From the IMG/VR virus record IMGVR_UViG_3300036045_000523, positions 2,117-66,116 of that record: DNA of 64,000 bases; one strand, given 5' to 3'. This document shows positions 12,041 through 64,000 of this stretch, one piece after another. Each line of letters opens with the position of its first letter. Positions within the stretch are counted from its first letter, which is position 1. The notes beneath the pieces are model-generated. The model was not told the DNA's origin, searched no databases, and saw nothing but the letters and a program-made list of their open reading frames with translations. This DNA comes from a virus. Lineage: Duplodnaviria > Caudoviricetes. A program made the position numbers and the translations under genes.

Positions 12041-12253
12041 ATTCCACTCCCCTGTACCGTTAGGTGCGTTGACTACCGACCCTTCAAATACAAGAATATC
12101 TAAAGGAATTTTACCAGTAATACATTCCCATAATAGTGTTTTTAAGTTGCTGCCTAGTTCTAGTCCCAAAGACGGATGCCAAAGTATATTAATACCAAAG
12201 TCAGCTACTAAATCACAGGCAGTTGGTTCGTCCGCATTCAAAAAGGACATTGT
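12041..12253 (-). other. hupS: Internal gene segment of the uptake hydrogenase small subunit (~residues 16-86)
   Basis: TMSFLNADEPTACDLVADFGINILWHPSLGLELG...IPLDILVFEGSVVNAPNGTGEWN matches cyanobacterial HupS as I recall it. No stops or frameshifts. The N-terminal MTNVLWLQGGACSGN and everything after GEWN are absent. Confidence 0.92.
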
Positions 12254-12345
12254 ATAGTCACTATAGGACAATTTTATGCCTTAAGCTCCTACCTAATTTG
12301 CTGCGGGGGGATGTGTTTCTTAGGAGTTAGGAGTATACTTTTTGA

Positions 12346-12414
12346 GGTGCGAACCTGGAACGGACAAAATTGACTGTAATGTATGTGGGATAACAGTTTG
12401 AGGGTGCGAACCTG
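12346..12414. repeat. Direct repeat GGTGCGAACCTG x2; candidate arm sites of the right-hand element
   Basis: Copies at 12346-12357 and 12403-12414. Confidence 0.5.
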
Positions 12415-12483
12415 AATCGCGATCACACAGTCCCAAACAAAAACAAAATGCGTAGCTGTAAGGTTTGTTGTTAGATGTCACAC

Positions 12484-12879
12484 TTATCCAATTGTTTTGA
12501 TGTATGGATAGTTGAGAATTTTTTGATCGCAGGTCATAAGTTCTATATTGCGGCGGTAGGCTATTGCAACAATAATACGATCGGCTGGGTCTTTGTGAAA
12601 GTCTCCGGGTAATTGGGTGCTGATAATTGCATCGAGTGGATCGAGCGGTTCTATGGTAATTCCAGGTCGAGTTGTTGCAAGTGCGAACCATTCATTAATG
12701 GGAAGGGGGAGGGGTAGTTTCCCATTACTGTGCTTAACTGCGATTTCCCATACAGAAATGGCAGAAACAATAAGGGAATTTTGGTTTTCGCCTATGGTTA
12801 ATAGTTTACGTCCACGCTCAGAAAGTTGATCTGGAGTATGGAGCCACCACAGCCAAATATGGGTGTCTAGTAAAATCAT
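12484..12879 (-). CDS. vapC: PIN-domain toxin, VapC family
   Basis: ILLDTHIWLW...SAISVWEIA.K...HKDPADRIIVA.A...LMTCD. Confidence 0.92.
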   Translation of the reverse strand: MILLDTHIWLWWLHTPDQLSERGRKLLTIGENQNSLIVSAISVWEIAVKHSNGKLPLPLPINEWFALATTRPGITIEPLDPLDAIISTQLPGDFHKDPADRIIVAIAYRRNIELMTCDQKILNYPYIKTIG

Positions 12880-13115
12880 TGTCCCAAAGCATCCCATAAT
12901 TCAGGCATGGGTTCGTCAAAATCTGGAGGAATTGTTATGGGGATTTTGCGTAGGGAATGCTCAGGAGTGCGATCGCGGGTTAAATCTATTTCGTCAGAGG
13001 TTGGGGTTGGCTGTGATGATGGTAATGTCAGGCTTTGAGCCAAAAGTTGGAGGATGCGTATTCTTTCTGCTAAGTCGAGGCTGAGGAGTTGTTGTTCTAG
13101 TTCTTGATTGCTCAT
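12876..13115 (-). CDS. Antitoxin cognate to the PIN toxin
   Basis: ATGA-coupled upstream gene ending IPPDFDEPMPELW. Confidence 0.8.
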   Translation of the reverse strand: MSNQELEQQLLSLDLAERIRILQLLAQSLTLPSSQPTPTSDEIDLTRDRTPEHSLRKIPITIPPDFDEPMPELWDALGQ

Positions 13116-13275
13116 GGCTTTGCGCTATCATGACTGTGTATTTATTTTAGCGGAAATTTCCAGTGCTTCTGAGTACGTCCGCAGCGGGTGGAACGAAGTG
13201 AAACGACTCATAATTCCGAAGGGTGGCTTGCTGGTGGAATATCCGAAAGAACTTTTTACCTGTGGTAGGAACACC

Positions 13276-13641
13276 CTATTTACTCAAAACATTTGCAAAC
13301 GCCATTATTGCTACTTTTATTATTTCTGCTCCGATTTCCGCTCCATATTGCTCGTTTATCGTAGTCGCCAATCCTTGCATGGTTCCTATTAGCTTTGCTA
13401 TCCCGTCATCGCTCAATATGAATTGCTGATTCCCGTTTATATGATAGCCACCACAAATATGAGTTTGATTAATTTCAATGACTGTATCTTTTCTTAAGGC
13501 TTCAGCTAGCTGCGATCGCTGCTCCTCCGTCAATCCCTCTACTTTATCTACAATATGCTTTACCCAATCTTCCATAACTATCTCTAAGGTCTTTAACCTT
13601 ACTTTAACCCTTTGTTGTGCCAGTTCATTGCTATCGTTCAT
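13276..13641 (-). CDS. Hypothetical protein
   Basis: 121-aa ORF with ATG start. Confidence 0.6.
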   Translation of the reverse strand: MNDSNELAQQRVKVRLKTLEIVMEDWVKHIVDKVEGLTEEQRSQLAEALRKDTVIEINQTHICGGYHINGNQQFILSDDGIAKLIGTMQGLATTINEQYGAEIGAEIIKVAIMAFANVLSK

Positions 13642-62143: not shown

Positions 62144-62609
62144 CTTTTACTACTACAGTACATCCATACTCTGATGCAGCTGCTATCAGCTGGTCTAGTG
62201 TGTTTATTGGTCGTGGGATAACTCTTTCTATTGCCCATTGGGGCGTTGGGCGGTCTTCTTCTTTGCTCGCTTCTTCCGTATGTATTTGATACCACTTTAA
62301 GGAACCGTCTGAGTTGTAATGGTCAATTCGTTTTGTGGATTGCGATCGCCATCTTATACGGTGTCCATTCTCTAATGCATCATTTAACTTATCTCTTGCT
62401 TTTTTAACCTGAGCTTCTGGGCAATATTTTCTAAACTCTTCCTTAGCGCGTACAACCGACTCAGAAAAATCAGGATATTTGCTCTGCCAAGTATAAAATG
62501 TTTCATGGCTTATACTACCAGCCAACCACCCAGACTCATCACAACCATCGCAGGCGATCGCTTCTAATATTTTCTCAACTGTCTCCTCGGTGTACTTACT
62601 TTTTGCCAT
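62016..62609 (-). CDS. terS: Terminase small subunit
   Basis: SKYT.E....I...I..G...IS.ETFY.W...PDF; C-terminus GLTEEEAASIRAKILG. Confidence 0.8.
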   Translation of the reverse strand: MAKSKYTEETVEKILEAIACDGCDESGWLAGSISHETFYTWQSKYPDFSESVVRAKEEFRKYCPEAQVKKARDKLNDALENGHRIRWRSQSTKRIDHYNSDGSLKWYQIHTEEASKEEDRPTPQWAIERVIPRPINTLDQLIAAASEYGCTVVVKDADLFNRYLQEVSSESNKGNSRAGLTEEEAASIRAKILGLAE

Positions 62610-62778
62610 GTGATATTTTGTGCAGTTATTAACACAATGTACAATTACGTATTTGCTTATGTACATAATACCAAGAGATTGGAAAGGTCTTATCAAAGCT
62701 TTCATCCGTCGTGCAGATTCCCACAACGAGATTAATAGAAGTTACTTTCCTTACCATCAAAAAATATTTGTGTGGTTA

Positions 62779-62807
62779 TTGACACAATGTACAGAATACG
62801 TTACTTT
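62779..62807 (+). promoter_or_regulatory. Sigma70-type promoter sharing an extended motif with 27549-27574 and 62619-62644
   Basis: TTGACA-17 nt-TACTTT; TTGACACAATGTACAG is identical to the copy at 27559. Confidence 0.6.
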
Positions 62808-63009
62808 ATATTTAAGCGGCTAAGGGCACTTGGCGTTTAGGTCGGAAAACGATTAAAGCACTTGCGCGTTAGCATTAACGACGATTGCTTGAAAGATTAT
62901 CGCATCAGCGCTTCTTCTGGTAAACGGATACCTGCTTACATGTACCCAGCGTTCCATACGAAAGTCGAAAACTGTGTAGTCGAATATTGCAATGAAACGG
63001 AGTTTAATC

Positions 63010-63198
63010 ATGCCTAAAAGAAAAGTAACGCCAGCAAAAATAGCAGCCGATGCTAAGTACAAAGCGTCAGTTAAACAAATTACGCTTCAACTTAAAACCG
63101 ATTCAGAAATTTTAGCTTGGCTGCGATCGCAGGTAAATAATGACAGAGAATTACCTCATCTTGTTAAGCAAATTATAGCAATAGCTAGCAACAATTAA
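63010..63198 (+). CDS. Small DNA-binding-like protein
   Basis: A.AKY...VKQITLQL..D.EILAWL.SQ.N. Confidence 0.6.
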   Translation: MPKRKVTPAKIAADAKYKASVKQITLQLKTDSEILAWLRSQVNNDRELPHLVKQIIAIASNN

Positions 63199-63262
63199 AT
63201 ACGCTTACAATGCACGTTGTCCATCAAGTTTGAAGCCTCGGAGACTAGCGCCGAGGCTTTCG

Positions 63263-64000
63263 TTATAAAGGATGACTAATAACAATAATTTTATTTATAT
63301 CTCTATTAGCAACTATAAAATGAGCATCTTGCCCATCTAAATCTATTTTTATTGTTGTATTCCATAATGTGATACTAGTTACCGTTCCTTGCTTTTGTCC
63401 AGGGAATTTAACAACAGTTCCAACATACAATATTCTATCCCAAAATATCTTAATTGTAGCCAATATATCTTTTAAACTGTCCTGTCCTGCAAATCCAAAT
63501 ATTGCCAGTGTGACAGCGCCTATATTTAATATTGGAGTGATGTCAATCCCGTTTGTAGCAAGCAATATTACAAAGCCACATACCCATAAAACTAATTTAA
63601 TTATTGACGCTGCAACTGGAATAAAAGTTAAATAATTTGTTTTGTCTCGGTTATTAAGCTGAATATTATTTCTGACTATTTTAGATAACGCGATCGCACC
63701 TACCGAGACAAGCGCCACCATCGCCAACGCACTAAACAGAATAATTTGAAACGTTACTAAGAAATAGGCGATCGCGTAAGTATGCTTCCAATATGGGGTG
63801 ATCGCATATGCAACACCAGCTACAGACCCAACGCCAAAGCCGAACCATCTAACGTCTGACCCAATTTCGCTCAACCAAGAATGTATTAAGTTAACTGGTG
63901 TTACTCTTTCTAATCGTGTGCCGATTAATTTACCGCTTACTGATAGAACAGTGAATATGATTCCGCCCACAATCGCTCTCTTTAGTGTATCGTCTAACAT
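63263..64000 (-). CDS. MscS-family mechanosensitive channel protein, lacking the C-terminal domain
   Basis: L...GIDIT......LAIFGFAGQD.LKD....I.I..D....VG..V.....GTV..I.L..T.I. Confidence 0.8.
   Translation of the reverse strand: MLDDTLKRAIVGGIIFTVLSVSGKLIGTRLERVTPVNLIHSWLSEIGSDVRWFGFGVGSVAGVAYAITPYWKHTYAIAYFLVTFQIILFSALAMVALVSVGAIALSKIVRNNIQLNNRDKTNYLTFIPVAASIIKLVLWVCGFVILLATNGIDITPILNIGAVTLAIFGFAGQDSLKDILATIKIFWDRILYVGTVVKFPGQKQGTVTSITLWNTTIKIDLDGQDAHFIVANRDINKIIVISHPL

Follow-up and report, generated by a model that had tools for sequence, protein, structure and literature searches.

An apparently complete myovirus gene set adjoins an interrupted hupS gene and may form the body of a hupS-interrupting element

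We analyzed a stretch of 64,000 nucleotides (nt) of viral DNA, here called the window, in which tailed-phage genes adjoin a fragment of hupS, the gene for the small subunit of the NiFe uptake hydrogenase, from a nitrogen-fixing cyanobacterium. This gene is used in heterocysts only. The window comprises bases 2117-66116 of the 66,116-bp IMG/VR "provirus" record IMGVR_UViG_3300036045_000523 (CheckV completeness 87%), and it was compared with 389 genomes of the family (Nostocaceae) and 401 genomes of the order. The translation of the hupS fragment (12032-12253, minus strand; TMSFLNADEP...GTGEWNSFV) matches residues 15-88 of PDB 7uur_D with an E value of 1.8e-29. Its nucleotide identity to cyanobacterial hupS is 72-75%, and its amino acid identity to hupS of the genomes G457, G429, G440 and G735 is 80-83%. 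The fragment is only 222 bp long and is broken at both ends, on the right by the DNA that carries the phage genes and on the left by a separate element; the remaining 5' and 3' parts of hupS are absent from the record. Four public sediment-metagenome DNA runs from two samples, possibly the source of the record, contain the stretch; no RNA run was listed for it. Their contigs span both breaks (12031 and 12253) with zero differences, so the hupS junctions are no artefact of a single assembly. Depth in these contigs, which is not the same as copy number, is alike over the left element, hupS and the phage.

The initial annotation had placed the right-hand break at the first Fe-S cysteine motif of hupS, and alignment with the intact hupS of G440 confirmed this placement. 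Homology to hupS stops at 12253 ± 5 nt, at codon 16 (ACA ATG TCC; nt ~44-50), and since the intact gene reads MANVLWLQGGACSGNT up to this point and ISFLNAEEP beyond it, the break lies directly behind the first Cys motif. The palindrome described at the junction, TATAGTCACTATA, was found once in the window (12253-12265; 0.03 expected), and the repeat GGTGCGAACCTG was found twice, at 12346 and 12403 (0.14 expected; 0 of 100 shuffles reached two copies). The palindrome is included in TGTATAGTCACTATAGGAC, the attachment (att) half-site of the hupS position-49/51 serine-recombinase elements. Indeed, a TAGTCAC(W)ATAG(A/G)A motif occurs at both junctions of the hupS elements in G457, G429 and G735. 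In these three genomes, the 3' part of hupS is preceded by ...TTCTATAGTGAC(T/A)A(T/C), identical to the window, and the hupS 5' parts of G457, G735, G429 and G001 run into the inverted form of the motif. Because the motif recurs inverted behind the 5' parts, the two arms are near-identical inverted repeats, placed around an ATGTC core, and the palindrome falls within the half-site. When the window arm with its 70-nt flank was compared with both arms of four hupS elements, no alignment extended past ~20 nt. The letters ATGCCT behind the arm resemble the start of the G429 recombinase gene, a resemblance that we judged to be chance. The hupS position-50 elements inspected were a 7.5-kb element in G735, both ends of a 104-kb element in G457, and parts of elements in G429 and G001.

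Table B of Hilton 2016 (PMC4874684), a source consulted in part, lists three serine-recombinase hupS elements at positions 49, 49 and 51, namely those of Calothrix PCC 7103 (30 kb), Rivularia PCC 7116 (91 kb) and Scytonema hofmanni UTEX 2349 (258 kb). The window break lies within 10 bp of nt 49-51 and at the conserved site of this variant; the insertion point is the same within ~5 nt, which implies an element of the serine-recombinase type in the window as well. At the level of sequence, these data support a site-specific insertion at the known hupS position 49-51 site. Since the half-site is common to G457, G429, G735 and G001, the window element was presumably inserted by a recombinase of the hupS position-50 type.

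The second break, at 12031/12032 after EWNSF, coincides with the repeat site (GTCATTGGAATCGCTTTGC) of CnXisS1, the tyrosine recombinase of Calothrix NIES-4101 (PMC11249958, as far as this source was available). The element to the left of it extends for >14 kb from 12031 to the start of the record. It keeps an intact full-length tyrosine recombinase gene, the 370-aa product of which is 66.7% and 65% identical in amino acids to the products of the genes adjoining the same hupS fragment in G440 and G429, respectively, and it also encodes a Uma2 nuclease and an HSDR_N protein. The available part of the Calothrix NIES-4101 report describes, as a preliminary result, a three-part hupS that needs two excisions; as in the window, there are two cuts, and the downstream one (HWNRF/EWNSF) is associated with a tyrosine recombinase (PMC11249958). 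G440 shows the same layout as NIES-4101, yet its hupS is intact at position 50, unlike that of the window. The left element is apart from the phage finding, but it marks hupS in the window as belonging to a known type of gene with multiple interruptions. The fragment contains zero stops, and omega is 0.055 against G457 and 0.087 against the second G440 copy (undefined against the other two orthologs), which indicates that its coding sequence is still constrained.

To the right of hupS, genes were assigned by Pfam and PHROG matches (Table 1). These matches bore out the gene content given in the initial annotation, namely vapBC, a repressor, replication genes and a myovirus set. Terminase, portal, capsid protease and major capsid genes are all present and are all full length by comparison with two relatives described below. 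Sheath, tape measure, baseplate and fibre genes are present too, and the tube protein was placed by its position. Read from right to left, the main structural block continues after the tape measure gene with a tail protein, a CIS_tube-like protein, a protease, a cement protein and the major capsid protein, and onward from there with connectors, a C39-type endolysin, tail completion, sheath, the putative tube protein and overlapping chaperone open reading frames (ORFs). As for lysogeny, the record encodes a cI-like helix-turn-helix (HTH) protein and no integrase. No RGSGR-type (PatS-like) peptide was found in any frame. Isolated phages were considered as close relatives and proved to be distant only, the best portal match being 27% (S-CBS4).

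Table 1. Features in and around the hupS junction and the phage genes of the window, with the recombinase genes of two related phages
Feature	Position	Strand	Evidence and remarks
TnpB-type gene of left element	7872-9029
Tyrosine-recombinase gene, 370 aa, of separate left element, outside phage	10778..11890	-	weak PF00589 match
Internal hupS fragment	12032..12253	-	codons ~16-89, broken at both ends
att half-site of hupS position-49/51 serine-recombinase elements	12251..12269	.	includes palindrome
Non-coding spacer	12270..12483	.	two GGTGCGAACCTG copies
vapBC-type toxin-antitoxin	12484..13115	-	vapC 12484-12897, PIN domain E 1.7e-13; vapB 12876-13115
Left phage end	13276..14296	-	121-aa gene 13276-13641; cI-like HTH repressor 13853-14296, HTH_3 E 0.004 (weak)
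Early region, many genes of no assigned function	14157..30262	+	partly common to G457, G001
O-like replication initiator	14832-15962	+	phrog_270, phrog_391
C5 DNA methyltransferase	19878-21308	+	PF00145
Two tail fibre/collar genes	30494..32842	-	phrog_31611, phrog_5073; 78-82% identity in G457, L001
Portal	33773-35596	+	PF06381 E 5.5e-33; phrog_146 E 3e-58
Baseplate I-like protein	35822-36349	+	Tail_P2_I
Fibre	36351-38282	+
Main structural block	38438..51120	-	homologs full-length, 55-86% identity, G457, G001
Putative tube protein, 135 aa	39078-39485	-	position alone
Sheath	39492-40697	-	phrog_17610, phrog_23
BstA-like gene inside structural block	41297-42172	+
Major capsid	44334-45281	-
Tape measure with M23 domain	48694-51120	-
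HTH regulator and three further virion-associated genes	51185..56067	+
Mu F-like head morphogenesis	51589-52506	+	PF04233, PHROG head morphogenesis families
Conserved 131-aa gene	within 56064..57856	-
Baseplate J	56461-57564	-	PF04865 E 9e-14; phrog_6 E 2e-31
gp25-like W protein	57545-57856	-	weak, GPW_gp25 E 0.037
TerL	60710-62143	-	Terminase_6N, 6C; phrog_979 E 2e-37; 78% identity to Calothrix MAG locus L001
TerS	62016-62726	-	likely start 62609
MscS-like membrane protein, last record gene	63263..64000	-	69-70% identity to L001 2712-3452, G457
Relatives' serine recombinases	L001 893-2305; L174 15647-17029 (G457:C22)		start at junction

When the phage genes were compared with those of G457, dS was >1 or undefined in 44 of 44 gene pairs, dN ranged from 0.12 to 1.08, and omega was 0.065-0.338 in the 17 pairs in which it was defined. 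Pairs with G001 behaved alike, save one poorly aligned early gene with an omega of 0.70. By these sequence comparisons, the phage genes are under purifying selection, and the data support a phage body that consists of a full-length, selectively maintained tailed-phage gene set.

Some smaller features of the phage DNA deserve mention. A promoter-like repeat occurs three times (27547-27611, 62617-62647 and 62759-62831), and 27556-27584 reads TTGACA-N17-TACAAT. The latter two copies lie between TerS and an unlisted plus-strand ORF at ~63010-63198 (62 aa), which is followed by a terminator-like hairpin and has a homolog elsewhere in L001. The HIP1 octamer (GCGATCGC) reaches 2.58 per kb in the window phage and 2.06 per kb in the G457 phage, against 0.6-0.9 per kb in adjacent host or element DNA.

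A related terminase was found in 16 of the 401 order genomes (E<=1e-20) and in 6 of the 389 family genomes (E<=1e-40), and two of these relatives were informative with regard to their boundaries. The relative in G001, a Calothrix metagenome-assembled genome (MAG), is at least 66 kb long. At locus L001 (contig C177), a nifD fragment (HCYRS...WDYS) is followed by a gene for a 470-aa protein with Resolvase, Recombinase and Zn-ribbon domains, by the MscS-like gene, and by TerS and TerL, beyond which the locus runs on to baseplate J and fibres. Contig C1023 opens with the upstream nifD fragment and then carries homologs of window genes, namely of the 121-aa and cI-like genes, of the early genes and of most of the structural genes; it ends at the capsid gene. 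The nifD pieces that enclose this phage break at WSGDG and share the core ATGGTCTGG. In the available part of Hilton 2016 (PMC4874684), Rivularia PCC 7116 carries an 8.8-kb serine-recombinase nifD element at position 777 with the repeat GTGGTCTGGTGA, and on this basis the G001 phage sits at the catalogued nifD position-777 site. The nifD fragment beside the phage also ends at WDYS, the classical XisA site (L001 306-324), so nifD of G001 has been cut at least twice.

The relative in G457 (contig C22) is ~73 kb long, and most window phage genes, those of the structural set among them, have homologs in it. It splits the gene of a luciferase-like monooxygenase, with the N-terminal half (Pfam positions 1-110 of 314) on one side and the C-terminal half (107-309) on the other, and the 460-aa serine recombinase gene of the phage begins at one of the junctions. 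The start codon of this recombinase gene falls within the last part of the truncated host monooxygenase ORF (L174 15238-15669), and both are encoded on the same strand, so the host monooxygenase promoter could drive the recombinase. G111 contains a more distant relative, with a TerL identity of 58%, that carries a serine recombinase gene at one of its ends; no interrupted gene was named for it.

Like the window phage, these two sister phages have structural genes at 55-86% amino acid identity, a common left end and a common right end (TerL, TerS, MscS-like gene). The genes at the left end of the window phage are 53-70% identical in amino acids to the genes that abut the junctions in G457 and G001. 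The sister phages differ from it in their target genes, in the absence of vapBC, in module order, and in that both of their boundaries are seen, versus one in the window. The sequences thus support the view that the same phage family is bounded exactly by the halves of split genes in two other genomes. As judged from sequence and from the available part of the published catalogue, one tailed-phage family is present at two of the catalogued interruption sites, one in hupS (position 50) and the other in nifD (position 777).

The recombinases of the relatives are only 24-35% identical to each other. Seventeen other family genomes contain homologs of the nifD-phage recombinase, at 50-59% identity. 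Of 11 such loci inspected, 10 have a nifD fragment directly beside the start of the recombinase gene and the eleventh is at a contig start; no phage gene lies within 1.5 kb at these loci, so the phage-borne form is the rare one. By sequence, the nifD-phage recombinase groups in the same clade as those of phage-free nifD-site elements.

The initial annotation had reported no integrase at the hupS end of the phage. This held for the whole of 12254-64000, in which Pfam scans of selected ORFs and a tblastn search with the serine recombinase of a relative revealed no recombinase. Furthermore, no Resolvase match at E<=1 was found in any of the six frames of the entire 66-kb record, and the sole Phage_integrase trace is in the 370-aa gene left of hupS. 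The record stops exactly at the start codon (ATG) of the MscS-like gene. A 42-mer taken from the end of the window had no exact match in genome, metagenome or viral contigs, the MscS-like protein had no match in viral contigs, and no near-identical terminase was found in the order or family genomes. In both relatives, the recombinase gene lies beyond the MscS-like gene, ~400 bp on in L001 and one Bro-N gene on in G457. A further sequence, G763, was rejected as an independent relative, for it is the IMG/VR provirus record of the very phage of G457, with 100% identity over the 20.9 kb that were compared. This record begins at the Bro-N gene directly after the recombinase and gave zero Resolvase matches, which indicates that the boundary caller trimmed the recombinase of the G457 phage. 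G763 is also without the cI-like and 121-aa genes at its other end. By analogy, the recombinase gene of the window phage may lie just beyond the end of the record.

Between the junction and the phage end lie a spacer and the vapBC genes. The GGTGCGAACCTG copies in the spacer (12346-12357 and 12403-12414) are 57 nt apart, and each is preceded by TTGAG. Among the matches listed for the family genomes, none covered 12274-12414, and no Rfam family was matched in 11800-14400. A 52-nt match of 12278-12329 in G457 (contig C46) was discarded, as nothing relevant adjoined it. The vapBC genes with short flanks (~12415-13172) are 80-91% identical in nucleotides in at least 25 of the 389 Nostocaceae genomes. 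In all five genomes checked (G600, G671, G601, G585 and G168), they lie away from hupS. This conservation is unusually high for the family and occurs in unrelated places. Together, the sequences suggest that vapBC is a mobile cassette.

Taking these data together, we consider it probable on balance that 51.7 kb of the window are the left part of an element interrupting hupS, and that an apparently complete temperate myovirus makes up the body of this element. With similar, modest assurance, we lean on sequence grounds towards a phage that is coextensive with the element, i.e., that constitutes the whole of it. The proposal of a virion-competent phage at hupS in the initial annotation was borne out in part: what the sequences show is the hupS junction with its att half-site, the genes and the selection that acts on them, and the split-gene boundaries of the two relatives. 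Virion competence and infectivity, by comparison, are only inferred, and the same holds for where the recombinase lies, for excision in heterocysts and when it would occur, and for the absence of lysis.

In the mechanism that we propose, a large serine recombinase would integrate the phage into hupS codons 12-20 (attB) by means of a near-palindromic attP with two TAGTCAC(W)ATAG half-sites around a TC core. Its gene would lie just past 64000 on the minus strand, beside the MscS-like gene, and would be followed by the first ~16 hupS codons. In vegetative cells, the cI-like repressor would silence the prophage and hupS would remain split, with a second, tyrosine-recombinase element splitting it again 222 bp downstream. 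In heterocysts, excision by the recombinase and a presumed directionality factor would turn the phage into a non-replicating circle, its late genes uninduced, and hupS would be rebuilt once the second element had been removed too. With a layout like that of G457, the hupS promoter and the first hupS codons would immediately precede the recombinase gene, which might, as a speculation, give this gene heterocyst-specific expression. More tentatively, the phage may belong to an infectious temperate myovirus lineage with swappable recombinase and att modules shared with the classical heterocyst elements, the latter being its stripped-down descendants; such a lineage would show SPbeta-like active lysogeny, with heterocyst excision without lysis and inducibility in vegetative cells. 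This broader scenario we regard as possible but doubtful.

Several observations weigh against a phage that forms the hupS element. The record includes neither the right boundary nor the 5' end of hupS, nor does it include the recombinase of the element. At the left, ~960 bp (12254-13215, comprising the 214-bp spacer, vapBC and 160 bp) separate the junction from the conserved phage end, whereas in the relatives this end (the 121-aa gene and its terminator) lies at most ~35 nt from the junction in one and ~15 nt from it in the other, in G457 in any case within about 50 bp. The recombinase start is found 31-33 nt from the hupS 3' junction in G457 (MIEKWFYGRVS) and G429 (MPEKWFYGRVS) and ~0.4 kb from it in G735, and the three recombinases in the available part of Hilton's catalogue are listed at the 'end' on the opposite strand (PMC4874684). 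The position 49-51 elements thus have their recombinase at the hupS-3' end, in contrast to the window, where this end has none, so the orientation would need to be reversed. Apart from ~33% recombinase similarity, the four inspected hupS elements share no protein with the window phage at E<=1e-4. Among the listed contig loose ends of the four runs, there was no loose end at 12253, no rejoined hupS and no circle junction, in contigs that drop rare variants. No spike or holin was found among the annotated phage genes. The phages of the window, G457 and G001 have their modules in different orders and orientations, which is unusual for working phages, and the morphogenesis genes do not follow a colinear order. 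Finally, a 41-45-nt hairpin repeat (GCCAC...CGGAGGTGTCCTCCG...GTGGC) is present in 12 copies with <=8 mismatches between 13789 and 57954 in both orientations (e.g., 16425-16465, 25752-25792 and 57914-57954). Since it has colonized the phage, partly inside ORFs, it suggests long residence.

With regard to these last points, the tape-measure gene, the portal gene and the I-fibre pair change neighbours among the three phages, and no long inverted repeats were found at the order breakpoints of the window. Large invertible segments coexist as isomers in infectious Anabaena phages, according to the available part of a preprint (10.64898/2026.02.14.705889), so shuffled modules need not mean decay. 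The ORFs that contain hairpin copies are still open (the portal C terminus, the tape-measure N terminus and gene 43461-43901). The repeat is absent from the left 14 kb of the record and from the phages of the relatives, and similar 50-nt hairpin pieces are scattered in the G001 and G002 genomes.

The extra DNA at the left and the empty recombinase position keep alive a nested or composite arrangement, in which a phage with its own recombinase and att sites lies inside, or is fused with, an older hupS position-50 element. The true left end of the phage would then be at ~13.2 kb, with 12254-13215 as a portion of the outer element and with further non-phage DNA between the right end of the phage and the hupS 5' part. 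Such an arrangement would account for the ~960 bp and for the relatives' phages ending directly after the terminator of the 121-aa gene without vapBC. It would also suit the 12251-12269 arm, which is the recombinase-side arm in the ordinary hupS elements of G457 and G429, and elements within elements and within recombinase genes are on record (Table 1 of Hilton 2016, PMC4874684, in its available part). However, the arms are nearly identical inverted repeats, and owing to this symmetry the arm alone fits either orientation. The position expected for the recombinase of an outer element holds neither a recombinase nor a remnant of one in the six-frame search, and inspection by eye of the 160 bp at 13116-13275 revealed no split-gene fragment. 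Moreover, vapBC is a widespread free-standing cassette that may be phage cargo, and among the matches listed for the 389 family genomes none joins hupS to the spacer or to vapBC. With no such link among these matches and no phage protein shared by the inspected hupS elements, nothing in these data points positively to an outer element. The nested case had been named in the initial annotation as the one that would speak against its proposal; the lack of such a link weakens it and the ~960 bp sustain it, and we regard it as possible, if rather doubtful.

Two further readings take the locus to be less mobile. The phage DNA could be an immobile relic, gathered with other mobile DNA by a dead hupS after loss of the recombinase and hence without excision. 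The 51.7 kb without a recombinase, the two cuts within 222 bp, the host-type dispersed repeats in the phage and a module order scrambled relative to the relatives would all be in line with this. We nevertheless think it unlikely, as the hupS fragment is stop-free with low omega wherever defined, each of the two breaks falls at a catalogued recombinase site whose half-site is intact, the left element has kept its full-length tyrosine recombinase, and purifying selection acts on the phage genes, which are of full length; in addition, the available part of the NIES-4101 report provides a preliminary precedent for a three-part hupS with two excisions (PMC11249958). Alternatively, the host could have kept a domesticated, tailocin-like or gene-transfer-like particle producer, the excision of which merely restores hupS. 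Purifying selection on structural genes despite shuffled modules, host repeats within ORFs that are still open, and 2.6 HIP1 sites per kb against 0.9 per kb in neighbouring DNA are compatible with such a role. But terminase, portal, capsid, replication and immunity genes are all retained, and the invertible segments of infectious Anabaena phages offer another context for the shuffling (10.64898/2026.02.14.705889, available part). A related terminase is present in just 6 of 389 family genomes, and the three relatives reside in three genes with recombinases 24-35% identical, which argues for independent integrations by a mobile phage rather than vertical inheritance. Domestication is therefore very improbable in our estimation, and a hupS-interrupting phage remains the reading that we prefer.

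Parts of this picture are already in print: hupS elements at position 50, a hupS in three parts, elements with serine recombinases, and the hypothesis of a phage origin. The classical elements of nifD (XisA), hupL (XisC) and fdxN (XisF with XisH and XisI) are developmentally excised from nitrogen-fixation or hydrogenase genes, the same class of target gene as in the window. To our knowledge, the classical elements of Anabaena PCC 7120 carry no virion genes. The fdxN element of this strain encodes a serine recombinase, and in the available part of Hilton 2016 a phage origin of the classical elements is put forward as a hypothesis only, in a text in which the word 'capsid' does not occur (PMC4874684). 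An 80-kb nifH element of Anabaena sp. 90 is, like the window element, a heterocyst-gene element with phage genes, but these form an 11-kb remnant in which its authors found no terminase or capsid genes, whereas the window has a full set (PMC3542288, available part). In the available part of a preprint on A. cylindrica, integrases and two maintenance genes are the grounds on which 'cryptic lysogenic phages' are argued for (10.1101/629832), and the word 'phage' is absent from the NIES-4101 paper (PMC11249958). In the literature searched, which largely excludes subscription journals, we found neither a heterocyst-gene element with a complete virion gene set nor one phage family at two catalogued interruption sites.

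A known parallel comes from Bacillus subtilis, where SPbeta, an active tailed prophage with the large serine integrase SprA and with SprB, sits in spsM (PMC4191935 and PMC5499854, both in their available parts). As in the system proposed here, the prophage splits a gene needed only in a terminally differentiated cell, and excision rebuilds the gene without a lytic cycle. The two differ in host and cell type, and in that excision and the directionality factor of SPbeta are experimental, whereas the window is known from its sequence alone.

Automatic provirus boundaries can conceal the recombinase and other features that would mark a phage as a gene-splitting element. The origin of the elements that heterocysts cut from nifD, fdxN, hupL and related genes has been open since the 1980s, and only phage remnants were found in the literature searched. 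Our findings support the old idea that these elements had their beginnings in phages, and the phage family described here would be a concrete living candidate for their ancestor. It would also provide a testable cyanobacterial counterpart of SPbeta/spsM, in which excision in a terminal cell without killing it, the direction of recombination, and the decay of phages into switches kept by the host could be studied.

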